A DNA stretch of 63,722 bases, filler included, from Candidatus Rokuibacteriota bacterium (GTDB lineage Bacteria; JAUVQV01; DATDCY01): NCBI GenBank assembly GCA_031406795.1. It is 5 parts of 5 records of this genome, joined end to end, with 100 filler letters (N's around TTAATTAATTAA, not from the genome) between each part and the next. Parts side by side here need not be neighbours in the genome. Positions count along the whole stretch, not along the records: positions 27,594 to 43,381 come from JANOHV010000066.1; 4 more parts are not named here. One strand, written 5' to 3'. How positions within the stretch are numbered: position 1 is the first letter of the stretch; every line of letters starts with the position of its first letter. A model generated the notes under the pieces. That model saw only the letters and a list, made by a program, of their open reading frames with translations. It ran no database searches and had not been told where the DNA came from. Below are positions 27,594 through 43,381 of this stretch, piece after piece. A program made the position numbers and the translations under genes.

Positions 27594-28755
27594 CCTCGGC
27601 CGGGGCCTCTCGGCGGCGCTCGTGCGCGGCGGCCAGACCGAGAGCGCCCGCGACGCCGGCGCCGGCCTGCTCGAGGAGACGGTGGACACCGCCGCCGAGG
27701 CGCTGATGATCGTCAACGCCGGCGCCGCCGCGGCGCCCTGGTCGATCGAGATGCTGCCGCTCGGGCCGGGCGAACGCTCCGCGGCGATCACTCCCGCCGC
27801 GCCGCGCATCGGCACCTTCGCCGCCGCCGGGACCGCGAGAATCGCGATCGCCCCCGATGCCGGCGGCACTGCCCCGCTGCGCCTGCGGGCCGTGGGCGCC
27901 GAAGGGGTTCCCGCCTTCCTCGGCAACGACGGCCGGATCGTCGCCGGCGACGCCATCGTGGTCGGTTCCGGGGGAGAACTGCTGCTGCCCCACGGGCGCG
28001 GCCTGGCCGCCGTCTGGGTCGAGCGCGCCGGTGAGAACGTCTCCGGCCTCTGGGGCGCTGCCCCGCCCCCGCGCGAGCAGCCGATCGGCGCCGCCGGGAT
28101 CCTGCCCCTCACCGGGCCCTCGGCCGGTCTCGCTGCGAAGGTCGACCTCCCCTCCGTCCTGCACCTGAGCGCAGCCGACCCGCTCGTCGTCGTGATCCGC
28201 CGCCCCGCGGGGCCGCTCGAGGACTTCGTCCATCTCCCGGGAGCCCCCCTCGATGTCTACCTCGCCCCGGGCACCACCGCGCTCTGGCTGCGCACCGCCG
28301 CGGGCGGCGAGCTGCGCGGCAGCGCCGAAGTCCTGCTCTCCCCGGTCACCCCGATCGGCGAGGGCCCCGGCCCCGAAGTGCTGCTCGCGCCCGGGGCGGC
28401 CCGCTACTTCTCGTTCAACATCGAGCGCAAGGGCCCGCTCGGCATCGGAGTGCGCGCCGCCCCCGACACCGTCTCCTGCCGTCTCCTCGACGCCGCCGGA
28501 CGGACGATCGGCGAGGGGATCGTCCAGATGCCGAACCTCGCTCCCGGCTCCTATCTGCTCGCGGTGCGCGCGCCAGCAGACGGCGGCCCCGTCTCGGTGC
28601 GTCCGGCCCTCGCGGGGCTCGTCCCGCCGGGATCCGACCCACCAGCAGACATCGTGCGCCGCTATCTGGGCCTGAGCCGGGACGAACCCGAGAACGGAGG
28701 TCTAGCCGCGCCGGCATCCGCGCCGCAATGGCCCGGGACCGAAGAAGGGGATTGA
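27594..28755 (+). CDS. C-terminal part of a large hypothetical protein (beta-rich)
   Basis: Open frame from contig edge to stop at 28755 with coding-like codon usage; no recognised motif. Confidence 0.6.
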
Positions 28756-28764
28756 ACGGAAACC

Positions 28765-31023
28765 TCAATTCCCTCCGAAGAGCACGGGCGACTTGGCCGT
28801 CGATCGGTAGCGGCCAATCACCTCGCGCACCTCGTCGAGTCCCGCTCGGCCCGCCCCGCCCTTGATAACCGACTGGATCGATGCCTGCCTCGCGACGAAA
28901 TCAATCTCCTCAACGTGCATCGGCCAGCGCTCGACAAGCGTGACGAGTTCATCTTCGCGGATCCCATCGTTCCCCAGGCGCTCCTCCCAGCGACGAATTT
29001 GCACGTGCTCCGGCGGGTGCTCGAGCTTGAAGTGCAGGTTGAATTCGACGGGAAGCGGCTGCGGCTTGAGGGGATGCGTCACCATGCAGAAGAGCCCGGT
29101 GTGCGTGCGCAGTCTGGCTTTCAGGTCGTCGAGTTCAAAGTTCTTTTTGCCGTCGGATTCACCTTCGAGAAAGCGCCCGAGGTCGCCGCTGAAATCCATG
29201 AGCAGGGTCATGGCGTTCGCGCCGAGCGTCCTGGAGAACGCGTACTCCATCGGGGAGAGCTTCCGCTGTGTCAGCGGGTCAATCAGCCGGTCCGCCTCGG
29301 TTGACGACTGGAGCCGAGCGTAGATGAACGAGCGCACCTCGAGGCCGCACTCCCGTGCCAAAGCCTTTGCCGCAAGTTGTCCGGTGCCGAAGAACGGGGT
29401 GCTGATCAGAACGGTGAGGCCGAATCCTTCCCCCTTGAGTTGCTTCCAGGCGCGCGCTGCGCCCTGGAGGCCGTCCCGCTCCCGGTTACGAAGAAATAGA
29501 TCCGCGATGGTTCCTTGCGGTGCCGCGTATCGTTCGCAGATTCTCTCTTCGTCCGACGGCACGGGTTGCTGCAGGTCGACCGCCCGCACGAGTTGCTCCC
29601 GCGTAACACAGATTTTCCCATCCTCCCGCCTTGGCGACCGCGTCATCGCGAGCAGCATGCAGTTCTTGATCAGGCCGCCGGAGAGCTGGTAGCGGTCGGC
29701 GATCTTCGCGAGGTCGAGATCCGGGGCCAGTTCGAGCCTCTCAGGGAGAAGCGACTGCCACATGCGCAGCCGCGTGTCTGCATCCGGGATCGGGAATGCG
29801 ACCTTCATCGCGAAGCGCCGCTCCATCGCCGGGTCCAGGTCGACGGGCTTGTTGGTGGCCATGATGACGACGCATCGTGACTTCTCCAGCTCAATCAGCA
29901 GCGCCCTCCCCAGTCGCGAGTCGTTCGTGAACAGGTCGTCGCACTCGTCGAAGAGCACGATACCGCCCAGGGACTCCGCCTCGCGGAAGACCCTTGCCAG
30001 GACATCCTCCGGGTTGCCCCACTTGTCGAAGACGCTCACGGCGAGAGAGACGATCCGCCGGTCGAAGCGCAAGGCGAGCGCGCGAGCCATCATCGTCTTG
30101 CCGGTCCCCGGCGGCCCGTGGAAGAGCAGCGCCAGCCCGGTGCCGTAGCCGAAGAAGTCGTCCAGCTCGACGAGCCGCCCTGCGGCGCGATCCTCGAGAA
30201 AATTGCCAACGCAGGCGGCAACCTCCTCTTTCAGCCCATCCGGCAGGACGACCTGATCAAGGCTCACGGAACTGCGCTCCCACCGGATGAACCGCATCGA
30301 CGAACGATAGAGGTACCGGTCCCCGAGGATCTGGCGCACGAACCGCTCCTGCAATCTGATCTTCGTCCCCAGCAGATTCGTCGACTCCCCCACCCCGTCG
30401 ATCTGGAGGATCTCCTCCCCGATCAACGGCCTTTCCGTGCTGAAGTGGCGACGCGCCTCGACTTGTTCAAGGAAATCACGGCAGGCGAGCGACAGGATCG
30501 TCCCGATCAGCATGCCGTTGTGCAGGTCGTTCGTGTGCACGCCGACCTGCTCTGGCTCGAGGCGGCACCGCCTGAACGTCTCCATGAACCGCGGCGACGT
30601 GAACTGCATGAGCAGAAGCAGGAGCACCGCGCGCTCGACGGGACCGAGCCGCCGTTGTTGGCAAAATGCCTGAAAGAGCAGGTCGACGCCGTCCCGCTCT
30701 GAAGCCGCTTCCCGCAGGCGGTTCACGGCGGCCGTTTCCTCGAGCAGGACCTGCACACGTGCGACATCATTTCCGGCCGCCAGGAACGGAAAGAGCGCAC
30801 GAAATTCCGGCGACGACTCGTGACCGCCCGCAACCTCCCGCGGCAGATTCCGCAAATACCCGACGGCGAGCATCAGCGTGGCCTCTCGTTCCAGCGCCTC
30901 AAGGTGGTCGAGATTGTCGCGGAATGGTGCGTTTGACTCGCTACCCACCCACTCCAGATGTCCGAGCACGCCTTCGTCCTCGACACCTACTGCAACCCGC
31001 TGTTGCGCTGGCGCGGCGCTCAT
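28765..31023 (-). CDS. Tandem AAA+ ATPase (one intact, one degenerate module)
   Basis: GPPGTGKT, LFDECD, IMATN, AMERRF; second module lacks Walker A Lys; ATGA overlap with clpP stop. Confidence 0.85.
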   Translation of the reverse strand: MSAAPAQQRVAVGVEDEGVLGHLEWVGSESNAPFRDNLDHLEALEREATLMLAVGYLRNLPREVAGGHESSPEFRALFPFLAAGNDVARVQVLLEETAAVNRLREAASERDGVDLLFQAFCQQRRLGPVERAVLLLLLMQFTSPRFMETFRRCRLEPEQVGVHTNDLHNGMLIGTILSLACRDFLEQVEARRHFSTERPLIGEEILQIDGVGESTNLLGTKIRLQERFVRQILGDRYLYRSSMRFIRWERSSVSLDQVVLPDGLKEEVAACVGNFLEDRAAGRLVELDDFFGYGTGLALLFHGPPGTGKTMMARALALRFDRRIVSLAVSVFDKWGNPEDVLARVFREAESLGGIVLFDECDDLFTNDSRLGRALLIELEKSRCVVIMATNKPVDLDPAMERRFAMKVAFPIPDADTRLRMWQSLLPERLELAPDLDLAKIADRYQLSGGLIKNCMLLAMTRSPRREDGKICVTREQLVRAVDLQQPVPSDEERICERYAAPQGTIADLFLRNRERDGLQGAARAWKQLKGEGFGLTVLISTPFFGTGQLAAKALARECGLEVRSFIYARLQSSTEADRLIDPLTQRKLSPMEYAFSRTLGANAMTLLMDFSGDLGRFLEGESDGKKNFELDDLKARLRTHTGLFCMVTHPLKPQPLPVEFNLHFKLEHPPEHVQIRRWEERLGNDGIREDELVTLVERWPMHVEEIDFVARQASIQSVIKGGAGRAGLDEVREVIGRYRSTAKSPVLFGGN

Positions 31024-31598
31024 GCCCCACCCCGCTTCCGCACCGGCTCAACGCGGTCCGCGATGCCATGCTGGATCGCCTCCTCGGGCGTCAGCCAGGT
31101 GTCCACGTCGCGCAGCAGATACTTCTCCAGTTCGGCCTTGTCCTTGATGTTCGAGTACGCCAGGTAGTGCTGCAGGATGCGCTCGTGCTCCATATCCTCC
31201 GCCTTGCGGCCGGCAATCAACTGGCTGTGACTGCCGACGCTGAACGCCGAGAAACGGTGCGACAGGATCGAGGTGCGCGGCGTGATCACCCGACGGCCTT
31301 TCTCGCCGGTCATGAAGACCAGCAGCGCCATCGACGCAATCATTCCGATGCCGGTGGTGTATATCGGGATCCGCGACCACTCCATGATGTCGATGATCGA
31401 AAACCCCGCCGGGCAGGAACCGCCCGGGGAGTTGATCACCATCTGGATCTGGTTGACCTCCGCCTTGATGTTGTACTCGATGATCTCCTTGCAGACACTC
31501 TCCGCCATCCCGCCGTCGATCGCGCCGGAGATGTAGATGATCCCGAAGTCCTTCAGCCCCTGCTCTTTGCCCTTCTCCCGCTTCTCGCTCTCTGCCAT
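31020..31598 (-). CDS. clpP: ClpP-family serine protease paralog
   Basis: INSPGG, IASMA (Ser), SHRF (His), DTWLTPEEAIQHGIAD (Asp). Confidence 0.85.
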   Translation of the reverse strand: MAESEKREKGKEQGLKDFGIIYISGAIDGGMAESVCKEIIEYNIKAEVNQIQMVINSPGGSCPAGFSIIDIMEWSRIPIYTTGIGMIASMALLVFMTGEKGRRVITPRTSILSHRFSAFSVGSHSQLIAGRKAEDMEHERILQHYLAYSNIKDKAELEKYLLRDVDTWLTPEEAIQHGIADRVEPVRKRGGA

Positions 31599-31626
31599 GG
31601 CCCCTCCCTGGGTTGGTGAGTGACGC

Positions 31627-31660
31627 ATCATTCACTGGAGGGGTGACAAAACTGGACAAA
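31627..31660 (-). promoter_or_regulatory. Island promoter motif 1 (clpP-AAA)
   Basis: TGTCCAGTTTTGTCAC-N10-AATGAT. Confidence 0.65.
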
Positions 31661-31705
31661 GAAAGATCACCTGGATCATCGGCGATCCCGGGATCGGAAA
31701 CGGCC

Positions 31706-31800
31706 TTAGTCCTCGGCCCGTGCAAAGAAAGCAGACAGCCTGCGGTTCATTTCTGCCTTCATCTGCCGGATCGTCCCCTCCCTGGTTTGGTTCCTGGCAA
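31706..31800 (-). pseudogene. Deleted relic of the 34768..35370 gene
   Basis: Leader CCAAACCAGGGGAGG fused to GTIRQMKAEMNRRL.. C-terminus. Confidence 0.8.
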
Positions 31801-31801
31801 C

Positions 31802-31835
31802 CAGATACCGCGGAGGTGTGACAGATTTGGACAAA
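31802..31835 (-). promoter_or_regulatory. Island promoter motif 2
   Basis: TGTCCAAATCTGTCAC-N10-TATCTG. Confidence 0.65.
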
Positions 31836-31869
31836 GTTAGGCCATGGTTCGCGGCAAAATTTGCATTCA

Positions 31870-31894
31870 TATTATGACCATAGTATTATGACCA
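31870..31894 (+). promoter_or_regulatory. TA operator, direct repeat
   Basis: TATTATGACCA twice upstream of the antitoxin. Confidence 0.55.
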
Positions 31895-31915
31895 CAGACA
31901 GAACAGGAGGAAGCA

Positions 31916-32146
31916 ATGGTTCAGACGGTATCTAAATCCAAATTCAAGCCCCGTGCGCTGGAGTATTTCCGGAAGATCCAGGAAACCGGCGAGGAACTCG
32001 TCCTTACCGACCATGGCAAGCCGGTGTTGAAGATCACCGCCTTCAAGCCCGACCCCGCCGCATCGCTGAAATCGCTCAGGAACACCGTGGTGAAGTTCAC
32101 AGATCCCCTGCGGCCGACCGGTGAAGACTGGGATGCGTTGAAATGA
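31916..32146 (+). CDS. Phd/YefM-family antitoxin
   Basis: VSKSKFKPRALEYFR..GEELVLTDHGKPV. Confidence 0.85.
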   Translation: MVQTVSKSKFKPRALEYFRKIQETGEELVLTDHGKPVLKITAFKPDPAASLKSLRNTVVKFTDPLRPTGEDWDALK

Positions 32147-32538
32147 TCGTTCTGGATACGCACGTCTGGCTCTGGTGGGTCAGCAACCCGGAGCTTCTCT
32201 CCGCCGCGGCGCGGAAGACGATCGACCACGAGATGGTGGACGGAGAGATCGGTATTTCGTCCATCAGCGCCTGGGAAGTTGCGATCCTGGTGAAGAAGGG
32301 GCGTCTCGACCTCACGATGTCCGCCGGGGATTGGATCGCACGGTCCGAGGCGCTCCCCTTCCTCCGGTTCATCCCCGTGGATAACCGGATCGCCCTCAAG
32401 TCCGCGAACCTCCCCGGCCAGCTGCACGACGACCCCGCCGATCGCATCATCATCGCGACGACGATCACGCTCGGCGGCATTCTGGTCACGAAGGACGATA
32501 AGATCAGGAAATACCCTCACGTGCGTACGACCTGGTAG
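32143..32538 (+). CDS. PIN-domain (VapC) toxin
   Basis: IVLDTHVWLW, SAWEV, HDDPADRIIIATT, LVTKD. Confidence 0.9.
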   Translation: MIVLDTHVWLWWVSNPELLSAAARKTIDHEMVDGEIGISSISAWEVAILVKKGRLDLTMSAGDWIARSEALPFLRFIPVDNRIALKSANLPGQLHDDPADRIIIATTITLGGILVTKDDKIRKYPHVRTTW

Positions 32539-32609
32539 CTGCAGGTAGCTGATACCTGAGTTGGATGATACGTCCAGACACAACCGGCAAGAACAAATGG
32601 TCGTGATAG

Positions 32610-32641
32610 TGTCCGGAATTGTCACGACCTGGAATTACCTT
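32610..32641 (+). promoter_or_regulatory. Island promoter motif 3
   Basis: TGTCCGGAATTGTCAC-N10-TACCTT. Confidence 0.7.
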
Positions 32642-32754
32642 CCTTACCACACGCGGTTGGAATGCAGGGTGCGGCCTGGGGTAGCAGGGGCAATCTTGGC
32701 AACGATGATCTCGGGGCGAGAGCGGATAATCGACTTTTCGGAGGGGCACGGAAG

Positions 32755-33813
32755 ATGCTATACCAACTCGACCTCACCAGCGCAGCCGCAAGCAAAAAGG
32801 TCAAGCTAGAGCAACCTGCAGACTTGGGAATCCTTGAGAAGTATGTCGAGGATTTCTTTGCCACGCACATCCACGAGTTGATTCCCGAGGATCAGCTCAT
32901 GATAATCGCTCAAGAACGCAGCAGACAGGAAGAAGCCGACCTGCTTGCTCTCGACCGTAAAGGCGTGCTTTTCATTTTCGAACTCAAGCGATGGCAATCC
33001 AATCCAGAGAATCTCCTTCAGGTTATGCGATATGGACAGATCTTTGGCCGTTATAGCTATGAGGACCTTCAGGACCTGGCGCAGCGTCATAATAGACTGG
33101 AAGGCAGTTTGGCCAAAAAACACCGGGAGTATTTTGAATTAGACGAAGTTTTGCCGCAAACAGCATTCAATGCTGACCAAGTCTTTGTCGTAGTCACAAA
33201 CGGCGTCGACAAGGATACCTTAGGGGCGATTCAGTATTGGAAGAAGAAGAACGTCCGTATCGACTTCCTCACGTACAAGCTCTATTCCCTGGCTGGGAAA
33301 CCTCATTTGTACTACGACACCTATAACCCTGAGTTTGATGTCATCCAGGAGACAAATCCTGGCGTCTGCGTCGTCAATACGAACGTGAGTTATATGGAAG
33401 ATGCATGGCGGGATATGATGACTGCGCAGAAGGCGGCAGCCTATTACGACCGAAAGTATGCCGTTACCGGCATTCAGAAGGGCTTTACGGTGTATCTTTA
33501 TCACACGGGCGTCGGGGTCATAGCCAAAGGGAAGGCCAAAGGCCCCTATCGCAAAACAGATTTCGATGGCGACAAGGACGCTGAGTATTTCGTCCCGCTT
33601 ACTCTCGATTGGGCACTGAGCGATCCAGATAATTGGAAATACGCCATCACCGCGCGCGAAATCAACAAGAGAATGAATAGCGGTTACCGATTCAGGCAAA
33701 CTGTTTTCGGCATCGCGCCAGAAATGGCTGAAGCTATTGACTCTCTTTGGGAGCAGCACCAGAAGGAACTGGAATCCGCCTCTCACTCGAAGGCCATCCT
33801 CACTGAAATCTAA
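32755..33813 (+). CDS. NucS/Mrr-like PD-(D/E)xK endonuclease with PUA/EVE-like C-terminal domain
   Basis: LEKYVED, ADLLALD..IFELKR, QVMRY; C-terminal IQKGFTVYLYHTGVGVIAKG; AT-richer than flanks. Confidence 0.65.
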   Translation: MLYQLDLTSAAASKKVKLEQPADLGILEKYVEDFFATHIHELIPEDQLMIIAQERSRQEEADLLALDRKGVLFIFELKRWQSNPENLLQVMRYGQIFGRYSYEDLQDLAQRHNRLEGSLAKKHREYFELDEVLPQTAFNADQVFVVVTNGVDKDTLGAIQYWKKKNVRIDFLTYKLYSLAGKPHLYYDTYNPEFDVIQETNPGVCVVNTNVSYMEDAWRDMMTAQKAAAYYDRKYAVTGIQKGFTVYLYHTGVGVIAKGKAKGPYRKTDFDGDKDAEYFVPLTLDWALSDPDNWKYAITAREINKRMNSGYRFRQTVFGIAPEMAEAIDSLWEQHQKELESASHSKAILTEI

Positions 33814-33863
33814 TTGCCCTGCTGATGCGAATCCCAGCAGAGCGGTGCGCTATCGAGGGCAGA

Positions 33864-34107
33864 TCACCAGGTCGTGGAAACGGGGTAGCGCGAGATCTCC
33901 GGATCGGGTATCAGAATGGTGAGACCGTGCGCCGCCGCCTGACAGACCAGCATGCGGCCGAACGGATCCCGGTGGTAGTCCGGCAGCTTCGAGAGCTGAA
34001 GCACCGCCACTCTCCGCCATCCCGCCGTCGATGGCGCCGGAGATGTAGAGGATCCCGAAGTTCTTCAGCCCCTGCTCTTTGCCCTTCTGCTTCTCGCTCT
34101 CTGCCAT
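33864..34107 (-). pseudogene. Chimeric relic: clpP 5' end (34008-34107) fused to PIN toxin 3' end (33864-34007)
   Basis: Near-identical to 31496-31598 and 38082-38226 respectively. Confidence 0.85.
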
Positions 34108-34135
34108 GGCCCCGCCCTGGGTTGTTGTGTGCCTC

Positions 34136-34169
34136 ATCATTCACCCGGGACATGACAGAATCGGACAAA
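34136..34169 (-). promoter_or_regulatory. Island promoter motif 4
   Basis: TGTCCGATTCTGTCAT-N10-AATGAT. Confidence 0.6.
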
Positions 34170-34207
34170 CGAAGATCCCGCAGCCCTTCGTTCCCGTGGC
34201 GGTGACG

Positions 34208-34759
34208 TCAGTCTTCTTCGGGGAATACAAGATACCGCGGCGGGACCATTCGAGTGAGCCAGACACCGTTTTCGGATCTACAGAACATGTGCCCATCCTT
34301 ATTCATGGCCAACGCATCGATGGCAAGAACTACCGGCTTCCCGTGACGCTTGCCGACTTCGACCGCGGTTGATTCCGACGTAGAAAGATGGACGTACTGA
34401 CGAGAACCAGGAATCAGCCCCTTGGATCGAATCGAGCGAACGAAGCGCGTGGCCGTCCCGTGGAACAGAACTGCGGGCGGATCAGCCGGTGGTAGATGCA
34501 GATCCACCTCGATGGAGTGACCCTGATTCGCCCGGATGAAGCTGCCATCACCCTTCAATGCAAATCGCTGCTTTTCGCTCGTGCGTGCCACTTCAGCGAT
34601 GAGTCCCCTTGAAAGTGATCGGCCGTGGGCAGCCGCGAGGCGCACCAAATCATCAATATTCGCCCATCCTTCGTTGTCGAGCTGCAGGCCGATGACATCC
34701 GGGCGGTGCCGCAGAACGTGGCTCAGAAACTTGCTGATCGACTTGAGACGACTTGGCAT
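34208..34759 (-). CDS. kptA: RNA 2'-phosphotransferase (Tpt1/KptA)
   Basis: SKFLSHVLRHRP, KQRF, IRANQGHS, LFHGT, RQYVHLS, SENGVWL. Confidence 0.92.
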   Translation of the reverse strand: MPSRLKSISKFLSHVLRHRPDVIGLQLDNEGWANIDDLVRLAAAHGRSLSRGLIAEVARTSEKQRFALKGDGSFIRANQGHSIEVDLHLPPADPPAVLFHGTATRFVRSIRSKGLIPGSRQYVHLSTSESTAVEVGKRHGKPVVLAIDALAMNKDGHMFCRSENGVWLTRMVPPRYLVFPEED

Positions 34760-34767
34760 TACTTTGA

Positions 34768-35370
34768 CTATTTCTGCCCTGCCTGGACGAAGTAGGCCGG
34801 CAGTCTGCGGTTCATCTCTGCTTTCATCTGCCGAATCGTCCCCACGATCGCGGTGACCGCTGACGGCTCGCGCATGTCGATCTGCCTGGCGAATTTCCAA
34901 CTCGGCAGCGGAAGGTCCGTGCGGTCGTCGATGATGAAGCACGGCGTGATGTCGCCGGCATCCTTGTAGGCGGCCGCATAGTCCCGCCACATCTCCTCCC
35001 CGACCGAGTTCCGATCGAGAATCTGGATGAAGCACCCGTAAGCAAAGATGTCCGGATCGCCATCCGCACCCAAAATGATCTCGCAGTCGGTCTCCCGGCC
35101 GCACGCCGCCAGGGCTGCAAAGAGACCGCGGTACTTCTCCTCGCCATCGAACTGGCAGAAGATCGTCCGCCGCCACGGCAACTCGGAGATCGGCAGCGGA
35201 ACCCCATTCCCGGATGGGACGGCTGGATGCGCTTCAGCGGGTCCCGCTGCTGCGAGCGTTGCCATCCCGGCGGCCGCCACCGCCAGGTTCTTGATGAACG
35301 TTCGTCTCAGCTCTGTTCCCGATTCATCCCTGCCGCCTTTTCCATCAAGATGTTTCACTCTCACTGTCAT
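34768..35370 (-). CDS. Hypothetical protein with twin-arginine-like signal
   Basis: LRRTFIKNLAVAAAGMATLAAAGPAEA; RBS GGAGGAG. Confidence 0.7.
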   Translation of the reverse strand: MTVRVKHLDGKGGRDESGTELRRTFIKNLAVAAAGMATLAAAGPAEAHPAVPSGNGVPLPISELPWRRTIFCQFDGEEKYRGLFAALAACGRETDCEIILGADGDPDIFAYGCFIQILDRNSVGEEMWRDYAAAYKDAGDITPCFIIDDRTDLPLPSWKFARQIDMREPSAVTAIVGTIRQMKAEMNRRLPAYFVQAGQK

Positions 35371-35399
35371 AGCTCCTCCCTGGTTTGGTGCCTGGCATC

Positions 35400-35433
35400 C
35401 TGATACCGCTGATGTGTGACAGATTCAGACAAA
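35400..35433 (-). promoter_or_regulatory. Island promoter motif 5
   Basis: TGTCTGAATCTGTCAC-N10-TATCAG. Confidence 0.65.
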
Positions 35434-35469
35434 GTGGAGATCACAGCGAAGCCGATGCAGGTTCCCGAT

Positions 35470-35501
35470 TGTCTAAATATGTCACAGGTCGCCGCTACCC
35501 T
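35470..35501 (+). promoter_or_regulatory. Island promoter motif 6 (ftsZ-like)
   Basis: TGTCTAAATATGTCAC-N10-TACCCT. Confidence 0.7.
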
Positions 35502-35529
35502 CCATCGCAACTCCTTGGGAGGGGAAAGC

Positions 35530-36603
35530 ATGGATAACCTTCTGGACCGAAGGAAGTTCCTTCACCGTTCACTAACATATTGTTCGGGGCTGGCTGTTCT
35601 CATGGCCATGCCGTCCTTGGCAGGGGGACGAAAGATCTCTGCCTTTGGAGAAGTTCCAGTCGCAGTCAACGAATTCGAGATTACCGGCGCAGACATACGG
35701 GTCATCGGAGTCGGTTGCGGCGGATGCATTGCCCTGAATTCGATGATCGGCACCGGGATACCTGGGGTGAAGTACATCGCCGTCAACAGAGATGAGCAGG
35801 CGCTCGGTTCTTGCCTGGCAACAAACAAGCTCAATATCGGTTCAATCGCCAACGATGCCACCAACGCCGCTACCCAGCACGAATTCGGGCGTAAGGCAGC
35901 CGAAGCTCACTCCACGGTTATCGCCAAGGCAATACATGGGACTGACCTCCTCTTCATCGTCGCTGGGCTTGGTGGAAGCACCGGGACAGGGGCTGCACCG
36001 GTAATAGCCAAGATCGCCAAGGATCAGGGCATCCTCACCGCAGGCGTCGTGACGACGCCATTTCCTTTCGAAGGCGGTCGCCGGGCGAAGCAAGCGGCAG
36101 ATAGTCTTCGTATACTTGAAGATACCGCGAATTCGACAATCGTTGTGCCCAACACGGATCTTCTCACGATGATTGACCGCAAAGCGACGCTTCTTGATGC
36201 GTTCCGAATGGCGGATGACTCATTGTGCCAGGCGGTTGCCGGCATCTCCACGCTCTACACAATACCTGGTCTTTCCGATCCTGATTTCTACGACGTTCGA
36301 GCGGTGATAAATTTAATGCGGAGCGCCAGAGTGCGCCACGGCGTCGGCCAAGGCGTGAACCGTGCTGTGGCGGCCATGCAGCAGGCCATTAACTCTCCCC
36401 TCCTTGGCGCTGAAACCGTCGAAAGCGCAGCCGGTGTGATCCTCAATATCTCGTGCGGGCCGGATATCGGCCAGAACGAGGCCTTGAACGGAATTAGGCA
36501 CATCCAAGAGTTTGTCAGGGACTTTCTTCCGATTGTGTATGGGTTCAAGATATTTCCCGAACAGGCTGGCACAGTTGTGGCAACCATTATCGCTGGCCGA
36601 TAA
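35530..36603 (+). CDS. ftsZ: Divergent FtsZ paralog with Tat-like leader and no C-terminal tail
   Basis: IRVIGVGCGG, AGLGGSTGTGAAPVIA, TTPFPFEGGRR, DAFRMAD, PGLSDPDFYDV; leader DRRKFLH. Confidence 0.85.
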   Translation: MDNLLDRRKFLHRSLTYCSGLAVLMAMPSLAGGRKISAFGEVPVAVNEFEITGADIRVIGVGCGGCIALNSMIGTGIPGVKYIAVNRDEQALGSCLATNKLNIGSIANDATNAATQHEFGRKAAEAHSTVIAKAIHGTDLLFIVAGLGGSTGTGAAPVIAKIAKDQGILTAGVVTTPFPFEGGRRAKQAADSLRILEDTANSTIVVPNTDLLTMIDRKATLLDAFRMADDSLCQAVAGISTLYTIPGLSDPDFYDVRAVINLMRSARVRHGVGQGVNRAVAAMQQAINSPLLGAETVESAAGVILNISCGPDIGQNEALNGIRHIQEFVRDFLPIVYGFKIFPEQAGTVVATIIAGR

Positions 36604-36694
36604 TGGAGCATCGAGGTGTGGCACGGCAGGAATTTATCCTTTCACCTGAGACCGCTGGGGCGGCCGTCCTCAGCAACGGATGGAGGTGCTTTGC

Positions 36695-36985
36695 GTGGCG
36701 AGGTTCGAAAACCACTGCGCCGAGAGTTCGAGGATGTTCGGCAGCCCTTTTGCCGAAGTCCATCGCTGGCTCGACGAGTTCGCCGGATCGCCCGAACACG
36801 GCATGCGCCACCGCAGGAAGCGCCACCACCTGGCGGGCATCGAGGAAGTGGCAAAGCGCTTCGGTGAAGATGCGCGCGCCGCAGCGAGGCAGCACGTGAT
36901 CACGGATCTGCAGGAAGAGGGTTGGACGGAGCGAGACCGGTTCCCGGTCGACGAGCGCGACTACGTGAAGATGGGGTTCTTTTAG
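36695..36985 (+). CDS. Small His-rich hypothetical protein (DUF6915-like)
   Basis: VHRWLDE..HRRKRHHLAGIEE..QHVITDL; GGAGG before GTG at 36695. Confidence 0.6.
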   Translation: MARFENHCAESSRMFGSPFAEVHRWLDEFAGSPEHGMRHRRKRHHLAGIEEVAKRFGEDARAAARQHVITDLQEEGWTERDRFPVDERDYVKMGFF

Positions 36986-37014
36986 AAACACGGGAAATGA
37001 CGGCCGAGGCCTCG

Positions 37015-37046
37015 TGTCAGGAAATGTCACAGGTCGGCGCTATTCT
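37015..37046 (+). promoter_or_regulatory. Island promoter motif 7 (dnaA-like)
   Basis: TGTCAGGAAATGTCAC-N10-TATTCT. Confidence 0.7.
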
Positions 37047-37074
37047 TGTCGCTCCAATTAGGGAGGGTTAGAGC

Positions 37075-37974
37075 ATGAGCTGCACCTTTGATCGGCGGAT
37101 GTTCCTGAAGAGGTTCGGGGCGCTTGGGGCCGGACTCGGCGCTTTCATTGCCGAGCCATCCCACGCGTGGAGTCGAATTACTGGCTTGGCGCAGAGTGCA
37201 CCGGACACCTGCGATACCGCGCGCATCTCAACATCGGCGGGAGGCAGTATCCGATCGTCGAATTTGATGAGGAACATGACATTCGACAGCTTCGTTCCTG
37301 GCGAGAGTAATCGACTCGCATTTGAGGCAGCAATGGCCGTTGCCGACCGCCCGGCGCCCCGCTGGAACCCGTTGGTCATCTATGGTGGAGTTGGGCTCGG
37401 CAAGACGCACCTGCTTCATGCCATTGGAAACCGCTTCCTCGAGCGCAATCCCGGTTCGGGAGTCATGTACTTCTCCTCTGAAACCTTTATTAACGATTTG
37501 ATCAACTCGATCCGCTATGATCGCATGGGCTCGTTCCGAAGCCGGTACCGGCAATTAGACCTGCTCCTCGTCGACGACATCCAGTTCATCGCGGGTAAAG
37601 AGAAGACCCAGGAGGAGTTCTTCCACACCTTCAACTCAGTCCACGAGTTGCACAAGCAACTCGTGCTCACCAGCAGCAAGATGCCGCGTAAGATCCCCGA
37701 TCTCGACGAATGCCTTCGCTCCCGGTTTCATGGCGGCCTCACCGTTTCAATCAACGCTCCTGAAAATGATCTACGGCTGGCCATCGTCCACCAAAAGGCA
37801 GAATATTGTGGCGCCAGATTTCCAGAGAATGTTAAGCGCTATATTGCGGCGCGGCCGAAAGCACAATGCATTAGGTCCTTGGAAGGGGATGTCATACGTC
37901 TAAACGCATATTCATGTCTGGACGAGAAGAAAATCGACCTGGCATATGCGCGAGAAATCCTCGAGAGAATGTAA
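37075..37974 (+). CDS. DnaA domain-III-only paralog with Tat-like leader
   Basis: TFDSFVPGESN, NPLVIYGGVGLGKTHLLHAIGN, LLVDDIQFIAGKEKTQEEFFHTFN, LRSRF, IRSLEG; no domain I or IV; leader DRRMFLK. Confidence 0.85.
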   Translation: MSCTFDRRMFLKRFGALGAGLGAFIAEPSHAWSRITGLAQSAPDTCDTARISTSAGGSIRSSNLMRNMTFDSFVPGESNRLAFEAAMAVADRPAPRWNPLVIYGGVGLGKTHLLHAIGNRFLERNPGSGVMYFSSETFINDLINSIRYDRMGSFRSRYRQLDLLLVDDIQFIAGKEKTQEEFFHTFNSVHELHKQLVLTSSKMPRKIPDLDECLRSRFHGGLTVSINAPENDLRLAIVHQKAEYCGARFPENVKRYIAARPKAQCIRSLEGDVIRLNAYSCLDEKKIDLAYAREILERM

Positions 37975-38081
37975 CACCCGGCGGGTCACGAACCCGAGGG
38001 GAGGAGCAAAGAAAATGCTTTATCAACTCGACCCACAGTTGACGCGAATCCCCAGCAGGACGGAACTCTATCTGGGTCAGC

Positions 38082-38468
38082 TCACCAGGCCGTGGCAACG
38101 GGGTAGCGAGAGATCTCCGGGTCGGGTGTCAGAATGGTGAGACCGTGGGCCGCCGCCTGGCAGACCAGCATGCGGTCGAACGGGTCCCGGTGGTAGTCCG
38201 GCAACTTCGAGAGCTGAAGCACCGCGGTCTCGTCGAGGGCGAGCGCCTCGATGCGGTGCCGCCGGCGCTGCTCCGGCACGAACTCATGCGGAGGCCGGGG
38301 AAGCGGCAGGCGCCCGAGCGCGTGCTTGACGATGATCTCCCAGGTGGAGACGGAACTCAGAAAGACCTCGTTCGACGCATCGGAGAACAGATCTCTCGCA
38401 ACCCCCGAGAGCGCCGCATCCCCGGAGGCGATCCAGAGGAAGGCGCAGGTGTCGAGCAGCAGCCTCAC
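38082..38468 (-). CDS. PIN-domain (VapC) toxin
   Basis: LLLDTCAFLW, STWEI, HRDPFDRMLVCQA. Confidence 0.9.
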   Translation of the reverse strand: MRLLLDTCAFLWIASGDAALSGVARDLFSDASNEVFLSSVSTWEIIVKHALGRLPLPRPPHEFVPEQRRRHRIEALALDETAVLQLSKLPDYHRDPFDRMLVCQAAAHGLTILTPDPEISRYPVATAW

Positions 38469-38710
38469 CCGCGCTCCCCGCGGAAACCGGCGAGCGTCTC
38501 TTCCGGCAACGGCTCGAAGAAACTCGCCGGAACCGTGAAGGTGCCCGCGGCAAGCCCGATCGGGCGCCGCTTGGCGTTATGCCGGGGAAGCAGCCGTATC
38601 TCGGCGATCGGCGCATTGCGTTTGCACAGGATGATGCGCTCGTCGCCCTTCAATCGCGCAAGGTACGCGGAGAGGTGCGTCTTTGCGTCGTGCATATTTA
38701 CCTTAATCAT
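38465..38710 (-). CDS. Phd/YefM-family antitoxin
   Basis: MIKVNMHDAKTHLS..RPIGLA..FFEPLP; TTGACA-17-CACTAT promoter just upstream. Confidence 0.85.
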   Translation of the reverse strand: MIKVNMHDAKTHLSAYLARLKGDERIILCKRNAPIAEIRLLPRHNAKRRPIGLAAGTFTVPASFFEPLPEETLAGFRGERG

Positions 38711-38813
38711 GGTTCGATAGTGAACTAACAACATGGTCGTGTCAACCACCAGTGACGGGTTTCTGCCTGACGGCCCGGCAGCGTGAGATGCTTGACCGGG
38801 TATAATCCCGGCG

Positions 38814-39527
38814 ATGCTCACCCTGCAGAAACCGACAATCAGCACTCCGCGCGACTGCGAGTACCTTCCCGGCCGCCTAGCGCGCACGGAATACTTTCTC
38901 GCGCAGGAAGTGCTCCCAGCGGAACTCGACATGCTGCTGGAGTCGGGATGGCGCAAGTTCGGGTATCTCTTCTTCAGGCCGGCGTGCGGCGACTGCAGGG
39001 CGTGCGTGCCGCTGCGCATACCAGTCGCGAATTTCTTGCCCTCCAAGAGCCAGCGCCGCACCATCCGCAAGGGCGCCGCCATGGCAGTGACCTTCAAACG
39101 ACTCGAATTGAACGCGGAGGTCTTCGCTGTCTTCAGCGACCACGCGAAATCACGATTCAACCAGACCCTCGCGGCGAACGAATTCGTCCAGAGTTTTTAC
39201 CTCACCGCCTGCCCGGGTCTCCAGTCGGAGTATCGGCTCGACGATGCGTTGGTGGCGGCCGGATTCCTCGACCGATCGGAACGCGGGCTGAGCAGCGTCT
39301 ATTTCGCCTTCCGAGCCACTGCAGCCAGCTACCGCCCAGGCGTGCTCAGTGTGCTTGCCGAGATCGAATACGCCGGCAGCTGGGGACTGGAATACTGCTA
39401 CCTGGGTTATTGGATAGCCGCGAACCCGCGCATGGCCTACAAGGCCGCGTTCCGCCCGCACCAGCTGTACGACTGGGAGAGCAGGGTCTGGCGCGATGCG
39501 GCTTCCTGCTGCGGCCCGCCGGCTTGA
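38814..39527 (+). CDS. Arginyl-tRNA-protein transferase family (Ate/Bpt)
   Basis: CEYLP, GWRKFG, RPACGDCRAC, SKSQRR, LSSVY, YLGYWI, MAYK. Confidence 0.85.
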   Translation: MLTLQKPTISTPRDCEYLPGRLARTEYFLAQEVLPAELDMLLESGWRKFGYLFFRPACGDCRACVPLRIPVANFLPSKSQRRTIRKGAAMAVTFKRLELNAEVFAVFSDHAKSRFNQTLAANEFVQSFYLTACPGLQSEYRLDDALVAAGFLDRSERGLSSVYFAFRATAASYRPGVLSVLAEIEYAGSWGLEYCYLGYWIAANPRMAYKAAFRPHQLYDWESRVWRDAASCCGPPA

Positions 39528-39617
39528 CGGCCCGCTTCGATCAGGGGCGCCCGCGGTGTGACGGATCCTGAGGATGGGGTTCTTCCGGCGCTACGGATGG
39601 TGGCGGCCCCAACCGAG

Positions 39618-39649
39618 TGACAGGAAATGTCACGATGCTGCGTTAGCCT
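39618..39649 (+). promoter_or_regulatory. Island promoter motif 8 (upstream of Mre11/Rad50-like genes)
   Basis: TGACAGGAAATGTCAC-N10-TAGCCT. Confidence 0.65.
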
Positions 39650-39779
39650 CTCCTCGATTAGCTCACGCCATCGGACCTGGACTCCCGCGACGACGCGGAG
39701 CTTTCCCACGACTTGCCGCGCAATTCGTTGTATCGTCTTGGTTGGCGACACTGCATGAGTCACCCGAAATGAGGGAACC

Positions 39780-40916
39780 ATGAACAAAGTCCGCTTCCTG
39801 CACACCTCCGACTGGCAGCTCGGCATGCGCCGTCACTTCCTGGGCGACGAGGCGCTCCCGCGGTACATGCAGGCGCGCGTCGACGCGGTCCGCGCACTGG
39901 CCCGCATCGCCGCCGAGGAGCGCTGCGAGCTGGTCGTCGTGGCCGGCGACGGGTTCGAGTCGAATCATGTCGACCGGCTGACGGTCGGCCGCGCTCTCGG
40001 TGCGCTCAAGGAGATCCCCTGTCCCGTCTACGTGCTCCCCGGGAACCACGACGCGTTCGACGCCGCCGGAGTCTACCGCTCCCCGGAGTTTCGCCACGGG
40101 AGGGCGGGGCACATCCACATCCTGGAGTCGAACACTCCCGTGCCAGTACGTCCCGGTCTCGAGATCGTCGGGGTGCCGTGGATGACCAAGCACCCGCGTC
40201 GCGACCTCGTGGCGGAGGCCCTGAAGAACTTGGAGCCCTTCCCGGGGGGCCACCGACTCTGCGTGGCGCACGGGATCATCGAGGGGCTCTCCCCCGACCA
40301 GACTGACCCCGCCGTCATCTCCCGGCGGCAGGCCGAGGCGGCGCTGGCCGACGGGAGGATCCACTTCCTCGCCCTCGGCGACCGCCACTCGACGACCGAA
40401 GTCGCGCCGCGCATCTGGTACTCGGGCACGCCGGAGACCACCGACTTCGGCGAACTCGATCCCGGGAACGTTCTCGTCGTCGAACTCGACGGCGACACGT
40501 GCCGAGTCGAGCGGCGCCGCACCGGCACCTGGCGCTTCCTGGACATCGCCCACGACGTGACGTCGGCCGAGGAGGTCCAGGCGCTGGCAGCGAAGCTGGA
40601 CGCTCTCCCCGACAAGGACCGCACCATCGTCAAGCTCAGCCTGCGCGGCACGCTGAATCTGCGCGCGAAGGGGATGCTCGACGATAGCCTCGAGCGATTC
40701 CGGCACCTCTTCGCCGCGGTCGAGCTCTGGGAGCGGCACACCGACATCCGCGTCCTTCCCGACGGCTTCGATTTTGGCGACCTCGGGCTCTCGGGGTTCG
40801 CGAAGCAGGCCCTGGACACCCTCTCCGTCGAAGCCGGCGGCTCCAGCCCCGACACCGGCACGGCACGCGACGCCCTCGCGCTCCTCTACCGGCTCTCCGG
40901 GGGAGGCCGCCAATGA
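39780..40916 (+). CDS. Mre11/SbcD-like metallophosphoesterase nuclease
   Basis: HTSDWQLG, AGDGFE, PGNHD, AHG, ALGDRH, YSGTPE. Confidence 0.9.
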   Translation: MNKVRFLHTSDWQLGMRRHFLGDEALPRYMQARVDAVRALARIAAEERCELVVVAGDGFESNHVDRLTVGRALGALKEIPCPVYVLPGNHDAFDAAGVYRSPEFRHGRAGHIHILESNTPVPVRPGLEIVGVPWMTKHPRRDLVAEALKNLEPFPGGHRLCVAHGIIEGLSPDQTDPAVISRRQAEAALADGRIHFLALGDRHSTTEVAPRIWYSGTPETTDFGELDPGNVLVVELDGDTCRVERRRTGTWRFLDIAHDVTSAEEVQALAAKLDALPDKDRTIVKLSLRGTLNLRAKGMLDDSLERFRHLFAAVELWERHTDIRVLPDGFDFGDLGLSGFAKQALDTLSVEAGGSSPDTGTARDALALLYRLSGGGRQ

Positions 40917-43381
40917 GAATCCTCCGGCTCCGGATCAAGGATTACCGCGGAGTCGCCGACCGCACGCTCGATTTCGATCCCGCCGGGGTCACCGTCGTTG
41001 AGGGGCCGAACGAGAGCGGGAAGTCCTCCCTCGCCGAGGCGATCGACCTGCTCTTCGAGCACCCCGACTCCAGCCGCAAGCAGGCGGTGCTGCAGACCAA
41101 GCCCGTCGACAGGGACGCGGGGCCTGAAATCGAGGCCGAGATCACCGCCGGCCCCTACCATTTCGTCTATCGGAAGCGCTTCATCCGCAAGCCGGAGACG
41201 ATCCTCGAGGTGAAGTCTCCACGAAAGGAGCACGCCACGGGCCGGGAAGCGCACGACCGCGTGCGCGCCATCCTCGCGGAGACGGTCGACGGCGACCTCT
41301 GGAAGGCGCTGCGCGTCAACCAGGGCGACCTCCTGGGCCGGGTTCCCGTCGGCAAGATCGCCTCCCTGGGTAACGCCCTGGACCGCGCCGCCGGCAAGGA
41401 GACTGCCGGGGAGCGGGAGCAGACGCTCTTCGAGGCGGTGGTGGCGGAGTACCGCAGGTATTTCACCGAGAGCGGGCTGGAAAACAAGGAGCTGCGGGCG
41501 TCCGCCGAGCGGATCGCTGAACTCGAAGACCTCGTCGCGAAGACCAGCGCCGATCTCAAGACCATGCAGCAGGACGTGGACAGGAGCGAAGCCATCGCCA
41601 TTGCGATTCCCGAGCTGAAGCGCGTGTCCGCCGAGGCGGGCGAGCTCGCCGTCCGACGCGAAGCGGAGCGCCTCGAGGTCGACAAGCGGGAGGCCGAGGT
41701 CCAGCGGCTGGAACTCGCGGAACAGAATGCCCGCATGGCCGAAACCGCCGCCGTCCAGCACGCGGCCGACCGTGAGTCGCTCGTCCGAAAGGTGGAGGAG
41801 GTACAGCAGCAGCGGCGCCGGCTCGAGGCGGAAGCCGCCACGGAGCAACCCGCGCTAGTTGATGCGAAAGCGCGATGCGAAGCTGCCACCGGGAGCCTGG
41901 CGACAGGCGAAGCGGCGGTCGGCGAGGCCGAGGCCGCGCTTGCGCTGCGCGAGCGGGACTTCGAGTACCAGCGTGCCAGGCTCGATCTCGAACAGCTCCG
42001 CGAACGGCGGGCACGGATCGAGGAGGCCCGGCAGCGCGCCGCGTCGGCCAGGGAGTTCCTCGATCGCACCCGGATCACGGACGAGATCGTGCGGCGCATC
42101 CGCGAGTGCCACCTCGACCTGGAGAAGGCCCAGGCGCTCCTGGATGCCGGCGGCCCCCGCCTGCGCGTGACGGCTCTCTCGCCCTTCGCGGCCGAGATCG
42201 ACGGGGTCCCCGAGAGCCTGGAGGAGCACCAGGTCCTCGAGCGCACCGTGCCCGGCCAGACGGTCCTGCGGATACCCGGCACGGCCGAGATCGTCGTGTC
42301 GGCGGGCACGAGCGTCGAGAACCTCCTCGCCGCGCGAGACAAGGCCGGCCGCGCGCAGGAGGAAGCGCTCGGCCGCGCCGGCGTGAGGGACATGGAGGCC
42401 GCCGAGCGCGAGAACGAGCGCCGCCGGGAGTCCGAGCGGGTGGCCGAGGCGAGCGAAGTCTCCGTCAGGGTGGACCTCCGCGACCTCACCCTGGACGCGA
42501 TGACGGAGAAGATCATCAGCCTCGCCTGGGCGGAAGACTACCCAGCCCAGCGCCCGGCATCCCCCCCACTCATGCCGGACCTCGACTCGGCGGAAGTTGC
42601 GCGCAGGGAGGCCAAGGAGACCCTCGGCCGAACCCAGGCGGACCGTGACTGCGCGCGGGAGGAAGTCCTGGCCGCCGAGAAGCGGGGCAACCACCTGGCG
42701 AGCCGCCTGCAGGAGAAGACGCTCGAACTTCGGCTCTCCGCGCTATCGGAGAAGCAGGCGACCGCCGAACTCGCTGCGACGCGGGAACAGAAGCCCGACG
42801 ATGATCTCGCGACGGCCTTGAACCTGGCCCGGGAGCGCGCACGGACCTCGGCAACCAGCCTCCAGGAGGCCAGGGCCGCGTTGAAGTCCGCGAACCCGGA
42901 GCTGGTGCGCCAGCTGGCGTCCAACGCGAAGAAGGCGGAGCAGGCGGCCGCGCAGCGCCTGCGCGCAGCCGAGGACGAGTTGCGCGACGTCGCCGCCCGC
43001 CTCGAGCTGCAAGGTGAACGCGGCCTTTTCGATGCCCTCGAGGACGCGCAGTCGCGCCTGGAGCACGCTCGACGGGACCACCGCAGCCTCACGGCGCGCG
43101 CGGCAGCGGCGCGTCTGCTCTTCGTGAGCTTTCGGGATGCGCGGGATGCATCCCGCCGCGCCTACCAGGCGCCGCTGCGAGACAAGATCGTCTCCCTGGG
43201 GCGTTTTGTCTTCGACGAAACGTTCGGGGTCGAACTCGACGAGGACCTCGCCATCGGCACACGGACCCTGCAGGGGGTGACCCTTCCCTTCGACAGCCTC
43301 AGCGTCGGTGCCCAAGAGCAGCTCTCCCTCATCGCCCGCCTCGCCTGCGCCCTCCTCGTCAGTCAGGACGACGGCGTCCCC
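40913..43381 (+). CDS. Rad50/SbcC-like coiled-coil ATPase (3'-truncated by contig end)
   Basis: GPNESGKSS Walker A, long coiled coil, LSVGAQEQL signature. Confidence 0.88.

Follow-up and report, generated by a model that had tools for sequence, protein, structure and literature searches.

Three lineages are known to have activators with a WYL domain that replace the -35 element: actinobacteria with PafBC, alphaproteobacteria with DriD and Moraxellaceae with DdaA. In the excerpts of the literature cited throughout, PafBC acts on mycobacterial promoters that lack a -35 and follow the consensus tGTCgg(N10)tA(N3)T, in which a '-26 element' spans -23 to -28 (PMC8635444). DriD of Caulobacter crescentus recognises the box CGAC-N7-GTCG, whose conserved form is CGXC(X)7GXCG with a gap rich in A and T (PMC10853764), and helps RNA polymerase with the housekeeping sigma factor onto promoters having only a -10 (PMC13004042), while DdaA binds the box CGWCA-N5-TGWCG (PMC12392091). 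Here we describe eight copies of a box of apparently similar design in a 63,722-nucleotide stretch of Candidatus Rokuibacteriota bacterium (assembly GCA_031406795.1; the whole stretch is called the window), together with a candidate WYL regulator encoded elsewhere in the genome. The window joins five contigs of a metagenome-assembled genome (4.1 Mb, 67% GC) with runs of N between them, and all eight sites lie on a single contig, C194 (window 27594-43381).

The original prediction, made from the sequence of the window, had described these copies as a PafBC/WYL-like promoter motif that defines a regulon across an island of genes under an activator encoded outside the window. The register to the -10 and the link to a WYL protein hold, and a candidate activator does lie outside the window, on contig C147 beside an additional box; its homologues carry the same box and -10. 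The repeat itself reads as a pseudo-palindrome rather than a direct repeat, the system looks like that of a DriD/DdaA-type homodimer rather than of PafBC, and the set of sites, correctly placed on the island, extends to C147 as well.

Eight boxes on the island contig

The sites are listed below; scores in bits come from a matrix of 38 nt that the eight sites themselves were used to build.

31627..31658, minus strand: site 1, TGTC-CAGTTTT-GTCA, then C and N10, hexamer AATGAT; 39.4 bits; hexamer 28 nt from the ClpP-like ATG
31802..31833, minus strand: site 2, box with hexamer TATCTG; 49.4 bits
32610..32641, plus strand: site 3, TGTC-CGGAATT-GTCA, hexamer TACCTT; 39.2 bits; 113 nt before the ATG at 32755
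34136..34167, minus strand: site 4, box with TGTCAT, hexamer AATGAT; 39.5 bits
35400..35431, minus strand: site 5, TGTC-TGAATCT-GTCA, hexamer TATCAG; 48.8 bits; hexamer 29 nt from the ATG
35470..35501, plus strand: site 6, TGTC-TAAATAT-GTCA, hexamer TACCCT; 43.2 bits; hexamer 28 nt from the ATG; back-to-back with site 5
37015..37046, plus strand: site 7, TGTC-AGGAAAT-GTCA, hexamer TATTCT; 40.9 bits; hexamer 28 nt from the ATG
39618..39649, plus strand: site 8, fully palindromic TGAC-AGGAAAT-GTCA, hexamer TAGCCT; 34.3 bits; 130 nt before the ATG at 39780

All eight copies were found where they had been claimed. Six are exact matches to TGTC-N6-TGTCAC, compared with 0.05 expected in the window, and none of 100 shuffles reached six; the two that deviate are site 4, which reads TGTCAT, and site 8, with TGAC as its upstream half. 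The claimed invariant spacer of 10 nt between TGTCAC and the hexamer is present at every site. The hexamers have A at position 2 in all eight cases and T at positions 1 and 6 in six cases each, and at five sites the start codon follows 28-29 nt past the hexamer, behind a GGAGG-type ribosome site. By our own gene calls all eight are intergenic and aimed at a gene or a gene relic (a relic only at sites 2 and 4), as had been proposed.

Genome-wide, the exact 16-mer occurs eight times, six of them on C194, versus none for a reversed control. A matrix scan of the whole 4.1-Mb genome, with matches listed above 12 bits, returned 18: the eight sites (34-49 bits), a pair on C147 (32.8 and 24.3 bits), and a remainder of at most 14.3 bits. 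The motif is real, far beyond chance and confined to the two loci on C194 and C147, not scattered across the genome. The bare pattern TGWC-N7-GWCA, with 255 plus-strand matches in the genome, is unspecific alone. Eight boxes with AT-rich spacers outside C194 and C147 were dropped: all of them lack a TA-start hexamer at the proper offset, and open frames of at least 148 codons contain seven of them; a match on C141 was rejected with a matrix score below 12 bits. A weaker copy had also been proposed at 36619-36640. Its sequence is as written, and the pattern TGGCAC-N10-TANNNT occurs twice in the genome, but it lacks the upstream half-site and stays under 12 bits, and we do not count it.

At site 8, as at many related loci, the upstream half is TGAC and not TGTC. 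A pseudo-palindrome, TGWC-N7-GWCA, with a free middle base and an AT-rich gap of 7 nt, to which the 'T' preceding the second GTC belongs, describes the motif better. This pattern is kept at all eight window sites, with 4-7 A or T among the seven spacer positions despite the 67% GC of the genome; one of the C147 sites keeps it and the other reads CGTC upstream. The half-sites have a period of 10 bp, and TGTC-N7-TGTC does not occur on C194.

The -10-like hexamer lies 11 nt past the box. A consensus scan for sigma-70-type -35/-10 pairs returned four in 9 kb, versus 2.9 expected, and none at any of the sites; the -35-like hexamers that occur are misplaced, TTGTCC at 21 nt and TTGTCA at 11 nt from the -10-like hexamer. 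The register of GTC, two further bases, N10 and tA(N3)T is kept at all eight window sites and at both C147 sites. After GTC the bases are AC at seven of the eight sites and AT at one, never the gg of PafBC, and TGTCGG-N10-TANNNT occurs four times in the genome and not at all on C194. To judge by these features, the site design is that of the WYL-activator promoters of PafBC, DriD and DdaA.

A candidate WYL regulator on a second contig

The bin was searched for WYL/HTH regulators, as had been suggested. Three WYL genes were found on three contigs (C147, C188 and C27), none of them in the window, and one starts about 33 nt from a copy of the motif:

C147:12297-13310: candidate regulator with HTH-WYL-WCX architecture (WYL 5e-10, WCX 2.4e-22)

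The C147 box beside the regulator faces a divergent DUF2779/Cas4-like nuclease gene, and the other C147 box precedes a GmrSD-like gene. On the regulator side, a -10-like AATGTT lies 11 nt from the box; homologue loci do not repeat it. The matrix scan found no strong motif copy near the WYL genes of C188 or C27. The C147 regulator has no WYL neighbour, so a tandem pair of the PafB/PafC type is not found. Its best solved relatives are full-length DriD (6.5e-9) and PafC (5e-5), and no BrxR or CapW chain occurs among its seven solved relatives at E≤0.01. Within the recognition helix K-R-T-A-Y-R, the residues R-T-A-Y-R align with R-T-A-E-R of DriD, and R37, Y40 and R41 do not vary among the 19 family members compared. 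In DriD, according to the excerpt, Arg37 and Arg41 read guanines and Glu40 contacts the outer C (PMC10853764); Tyr in place of Glu, together with an outer T in the box, suggests a changed specificity at one position. A homodimer model scored 0.54 against 0.00 for the best control, with an interface formed through the helical bundle and the WCX domain. For comparison, 20 of 30 solved pairs and 1 of 23 single chains attain that mark. Contact agreement among the runs is at least 59% and pLDDT (predicted local distance difference test) at least 68; the score may be due to a resemblance to WYL dimers already solved.

We then compared the system with those described in the cited excerpts. PafBC shares the register of GTC to the -10, the lack of a -35 and an HTH-WYL-WCX regulator (PMC8635444). 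In contrast to the present single gene and two half-sites, PafBC is a heterodimer with one DNA-reading HTH on a non-palindromic site; GG follows GTC there and AC here, its host is actinobacterial, and recA lies outside the regulon here. DriD (PMC10853764, PMC9186387, PMC13004042) resembles the present system in several respects: a WYL activator that acts as a homodimer (as is proposed here), a pseudo-palindromic box whose GWC cores, 10 bp apart, flank an AT-rich gap, helix arginines four residues apart, a box near its own start codon, target promoters without a -35 and with a fixed -10 distance, and a regulon that includes a cell-division inhibitor and a nuclease. It differs in the outer bases of the box (C...G there, T...A here), in the residue between the arginines (Glu there, Tyr here), in the remoteness of the similarity (E 6.5e-9), in contacts to single-stranded DNA (ssDNA) that are only partly kept, and in the ClpP-like/AAA+ partner operon found here. 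DdaA is likewise a homodimeric WYL activator, its CGWCA-N5-TGWCG having the layout of TGWCN-N5-TGWCA, and controls DNA-repair genes and anti-phage systems (restriction-modification and CRISPR-Cas); outer bases, lineage and regulon differ, and its box lies about 50 bp upstream of where transcription begins, whereas the centre here would be near -31 (PMC12392091). SiwR of Mycobacterium smegmatis is a further homodimeric WYL activator, with an imperfect palindrome between the -35 and -10 of a divergent neighbour operon; its palindrome is 19 bp long and of another sequence, and it controls adjacent DinB-like genes only (PMC10693628). The BrxR/CapW repressors are also WYL regulators beside defence-like genes, and are reported to form a clade separate from DriD, DdaA and PafB/C (cited in PMC12392091). 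The system looks closer to a DriD/DdaA-type homodimer than to the PafB/PafC heterodimer.

The regulator family comprises 636 database proteins at E≤1e-10, mostly from Desulfobacterota. Among 65 homologue loci from reference genomes, mostly Geobacteraceae and other Desulfobacterota, 56 have the N-terminus and at least 150 nt of upstream sequence and were used for a box test (the other nine were dropped), which covered 320 nt around the start on the divergent strand, with random windows of the same loci as controls. At most one mismatch to TGTC-N6-TGTCAC was found in 17 of the 56 loci versus 13 of 1120 control windows, and at most two mismatches in 32 of 56 versus 104 of 1120. A 'TA' lies 11 nt past an exact box in 23 of 92 strand-instances across the 65 loci, while the other offsets from 0 to 21 give 2-11 each. 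A ClpP-like gene (65-83% identical to that of the island) is present in 17 of the 65 loci, with a box scoring 11 or more of 12 within 110 nt of its start in 12 of the 17, and a winged-helix AAA ATPase in 16 (14 full length, two cut by contig ends). Other recurring neighbours are DUF2779 (six loci), DnaA-like (two), FtsZ-like (one) and DUF6915 (two) genes; in one locus (L030) the DUF6915 homologue has its own box with TAGCAT. Locus L026, from an isolate genome, combines the WYL gene, a box and the ClpP-like/AAA+ operon. The motif, restricted to two loci in this genome, is linked both to the regulator family and to the ClpP-like operon.

Two Geobacteraceae-type loci, L093 (G042:C31) and L106 (G045:C77), bear on the hexamer. 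In each, a box with TATCCT or TACCCT stops 7 nt short of the ATG in a TIGR03916 gene, a putative DNA modification/repair radical-SAM protein, and both genomes hold the regulator. This arrangement points to a leaderless, box-dependent transcript, in which the hexamer would behave as a -10. The case comes from a scan of five homologue-bearing genomes with the degenerate full pattern. In three of these genomes the counts came close to those of the reversed control, and the scan was too noisy for regulons; 12 of 30 loci were inspected and the radical-SAM case alone was kept. Two unrelated genomes are rich in the 16-mer (G027, 14 versus 1 in the control; G039, 8 versus 1), and each holds a distant homologue of the regulator at 27-29% identity. 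Another genome (G024) carries a 16-mer identical to that of site 2.

Genes behind the boxes and the proposed switch

The island holds six live transcription units, with the following genes behind their boxes.

28765-31023, minus strand: winged-helix and AAA+ ATPase, 752 aa, in the site 1 operon (28765..31598; WHD 6e-23, AAA 9e-21; weakly IetA/IteA-like, PADLOC IetA 1.7e-16)
31020-31598, minus strand: ClpP-like protease, site 1 operon (Pfam CLP_protease 3e-30)
32755..33813, plus strand: 352-aa protein with a NucS-like nuclease N-terminus, site 3 (PADLOC candidate defence family PDC-S11 1.1e-21; NucS 6.8e-5)
34208-34759, minus strand: RNA 2'-phosphotransferase of the Tpt1/KptA family, in the site 5 operon (34208..35370; PTS_2-RNA 2.6e-47; NF002014 249 bits, above cut-off)
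34768-35370, minus strand: 200-aa protein of no known family with a twin-arginine-type N-terminus, site 5
35530-36603, plus strand: FtsZ-like core with a twin-arginine-type N-terminus and without a C-terminal tail, site 6 (Tubulin 1.4e-32, FtsZ_C 1.2e-13)
36680-36985, plus strand: DUF6915 gene after the FtsZ-like gene (DUF6915 7.6e-9)
37075..37974, plus strand: DnaA ATPase-domain paralogue, 299 aa, site 7 (Bac_DnaA 4.6e-63; TIGR00362 307 bits, below the cut-off of 344)
39780-40916, plus strand: SbcD-like phosphoesterase, site 8 (Metallophos 9e-9; TIGR00619 1.2e-11)
40913 to the contig end (43381), plus strand: SbcC/Rad50-like ATPase, site 8 (AAA_15/AAA_27/AAA_23)

No Pfam family matched the 352-aa protein of site 3, and DUF6915 may be read through from the FtsZ-like gene. 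The DnaA-like protein covers positions 99-337 of the 437 in the DnaA model, so that the N-terminal and DNA-binding domains are missing. Its N-terminus (…DRRMFLK…) and that of the 200-aa protein (…LRRTFIK…) are both of the twin-arginine type, and in the Protein Atlas the latter protein reaches a best score of 0.78, to short twin-arginine-signal fragments only, which is at most a lead. The FtsZ-like protein begins with …DRRKFL… and a hydrophobic stretch and ends right past its globular core; the genome's own FtsZ-like protein (P0242, 397 aa) is 54% identical to it and continues into a long tail. Nearly the same N-terminus occurs in two metagenomic proteins (P0243 and P0257, about 50% identical overall), which makes this a small conserved family. 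The FtsZ-like gene beside the regulator in L030 and the DnaA-like homologues beside it in L042 and L050 lack a twin-arginine-type N-terminus.

We propose that each site is a promoter that the housekeeping sigma factor could not use alone, with a -10-like hexamer and the box in place of a -35. With the hexamer set at -12 to -7, the box would span about -38 to -24 with its centre near -31, and its proximal GTC would fall at the position of the PafBC '-26 element'. A homodimer of the C147 HTH-WYL-WCX protein would bind the 15-bp box with one recognition helix per half-site and, like DriD, DdaA and PafBC, would help RNA polymerase onto the promoter once its WYL domain senses a signal. By analogy this signal would be a nucleic-acid product arising from damage to DNA or from an attack by phage, the least certain part of the mechanism. 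Six island units would then be turned on, namely the ClpP-like/AAA+ operon, the NucS-like gene, the twin-arginine-signal protein with Tpt1/KptA, the FtsZ-like gene (perhaps with DUF6915), the DnaA-like gene and the SbcCD-like genes, along with two C147 units encoding the GmrSD-like and DUF2779/Cas4-like nucleases. We consider this explanation, taken as a whole, to be likely; with it, joint induction of the protease, nuclease and cell-cycle-like genes is probable.

Several points weigh against this proposal. Binding, activation, the inducing signal and the transcription starts are matters that we infer. Sites 1 and 4, flanks included, are segmental duplicates (81-96% identical, repeats D2/D3), as are sites 2 and 5 (89%, repeat D4), and sites 6 and 7 have most of the spacer in common; the likeness among sites is partly descent, and those that are independent number about five or six on the island. 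Nothing but relics follows sites 2 and 4, and the hexamers are weak, two lacking the final T and two beginning with AA. The homologue loci are kin, so their counts overstate independence. Regulator and island lie on different contigs (C147 and C194), and their presence in one cell rests on binning, the shared motif and the low-GC segments with high-GC flanks common to both; contamination of the bin is 3%. Two other WYL proteins are encoded on C188 and C27, and the helix of the former reads R-T-I-Y-R, which makes it a possible second binder. By our reading of the alignment, about half of the ssDNA-contact residues of DriD (as excerpted from PMC9186387) are kept, and the second Arg of an R-x-x-R pair is an invariant Ala in the C147-type family. 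Because only about half of these contacts remain, the ligand may not be ssDNA. Finally, recA has no box, and because of this the regulon here is an island programme and not a general DNA-damage response.

The same WYL protein might instead bind the box as a repressor, like BrxR or CapW, and be released by the signal. The position of the box, about 30-35 nt upstream of the regulator start here and in homologues, suits autorepression, which has been proposed for DriD at its own promoter (PMC9186387, in the excerpt), and several box-linked genes are defence-like; known WYL proteins linked to defence are described as immunity regulators (PMC12392091, likewise). On the other hand, no site has a usable -35, so there would be little to repress; the -10 distance, fixed across phyla, is in the excerpted accounts a signature of DriD/PafBC activators; and the solved relatives are DriD and PafC, not BrxR or CapW. 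We judge repression rather unlikely. A different binder, either the C188 or C27 WYL protein or an OmpR/PhoB-type response regulator that reads a direct repeat, is less probable still. In its favour, TGTC-N6-TGTC can be taken as a direct repeat at six of the eight sites, the recognition helix of the C188 protein resembles that of the C147 protein, and class II response-regulator boxes likewise replace the -35. Pho boxes, however, are direct repeats with an 11-bp period, while the period here is 10 nt; the TGAC upstream half of site 8 and of many homologue loci makes a true palindrome; strong motif copies are lacking near the C188 and C27 genes; and across 56 loci the box goes together with the C147-type regulator.

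Descent alone could also account for repeated boxes, if the copies were leftovers of one promoter cassette spread by segmental duplication, with no shared regulation beyond it. The duplication of sites 1/4 and 2/5 with their flanks, the abundance of relics and the 28-29 nt hexamer-to-ATG distance shared by five of the eight sites fit such a history, but in an information profile the non-duplicate sites are alike at box and hexamer only, and box and spacing recur on C147 and in other phyla before unrelated genes, which makes this account very improbable. Hardly credible is a promoter for an alternative sigma factor made up of TGTCAC and the hexamer: these are two conserved blocks at a fixed distance, as that idea would have it, but the 10-nt gap is far from the known -35/-10 and -24/-12 spacings, and the upstream half-site, the palindromic symmetry and the conserved link to a WYL regulator would be left unexplained. 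The WYL-activator explanation thus remains the one we prefer.

A bolder extension of it, which we regard as doubtful, would make box and regulator the switch of a horizontally moving 'self-arrest' module. Phage or DNA damage would co-induce the ClpP-like/AAA+ protease, the nucleases, a tail-less FtsZ core and a DnaA core without its DNA-binding domain, and the products would halt division and replication, amounting to abortive infection or a checkpoint through decoy copies of cell-cycle proteins. The FtsZ and DnaA cores carry conserved twin-arginine-type N-termini, and the ligand of the switch may be something other than ssDNA.

Origin of the island and wider meaning

Because the nearest named proteins to its RecA are those of Polyangia, Desulfuromonadales and Thermodesulfobacteriota (about 72-73% identity), the host is neither an actinobacterium nor an alphaproteobacterium. 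The island (28.8 to 38.1 kb) has 58.5% GC between flanks of 68-77%. A second low-GC segment (55-68%) adjoins an alpha-2-macroglobulin gene at 70-74% GC on C147:

C147 1-13500: the regulator with GmrSD-like, type I restriction R-subunit, YgjP-like, PIN and DUF2779/Cas4-like genes

Both box-bearing segments are thus low-GC inserts beside host-like high-GC DNA. The reference set contains only five genomes of the host's class. In searches at E≤1e-20 the regulator was not found in the three genomes of the same genus (78, 88 and 95% complete), in one of the same order or in one of the same class. The ClpP-like protein of the island is about 80% identical to Geobacteraceae proteins. Given these relatives without the regulator, the low-GC inserts and the Geobacteraceae identity, the simplest reading is that switch and cargo were acquired horizontally. 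Within the genus, DNA comparison of the SbcCD-like end of the island matched PIN-toxin fragments only, and two peptide patterns retrieved no relatives of the regulator in viral contigs. Sequencing runs matching this DNA comprise six DNA runs from three studies, with no RNA run among the matches.

Segmental duplication and deletion scramble the island at 33833-34177, 31706-31837 and 38000-38033, and relics accompany two of the boxes:

31706..31790, minus strand: site 2 relic, an internally deleted copy that joins the 5' untranslated region of the site 5 gene to its last codons (repeats D4, D5)
33833-34007: relic of a PIN-toxin 3' end, abutting the ClpP-like 5' relic of site 4
34008..34107, minus strand: site 4 relic, the opening 33 or so codons of the ClpP-like gene (repeats D1, D2, D3)

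Just past the DnaA-like gene, at 38000-38033, the beginning of the NucS-like gene recurs as a 34-nt relic. A degenerate ninth copy of the box at 32549-32580 on the minus strand scores 14.3 bits, with ATCA as its right half and TATCAG as its hexamer. It is aimed into the end of a PIN-toxin gene and probably represents one more decayed copy of site 5, made by duplication.

Two PIN/Phd toxin-antitoxin pairs and a gene of the arginyl-tRNA-protein-transferase family lie between the boxed units and have no box:

31916-32538: Phd/PIN pair
38814-39527, plus strand: arginyl-tRNA-protein-transferase-family gene (ATE_N, ATE_C), between the island and site 8

The antitoxin promoter of the Phd/PIN pair (31860-31915, plus strand) is of the ordinary sigma-70 type, TTTGCA-18-TATTAT, and is overlain by a tandem repeat of TATTATGACCA, likely its own operator. 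Arginyl-tRNA-protein transferases mark proteins for Clp-type degradation, which is of note near a ClpP-like/AAA+ operon.

A full-text literature search of a limited set of papers returned no description of the subfamily or its box. The design of a WYL-activator promoter is known; the box, the partner operon and the host range appear to be new. The present system would add to the three described lineages a fourth, apparently undescribed subfamily with its own box, TGWC-N7-GWCA, and a partner operon of a ClpP-like protease and an AAA+ ATPase. It predicts that the outer box base pairs with the Tyr or Glu of the recognition helix, and that the proximal half-site occupies the -26 position of PafBC. 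The box offers a cheap handle for regulon prediction in uncultured bacteria, and the regulon would tie such a switch to an unusual cargo, the cores of FtsZ and DnaA with export-type N-termini.

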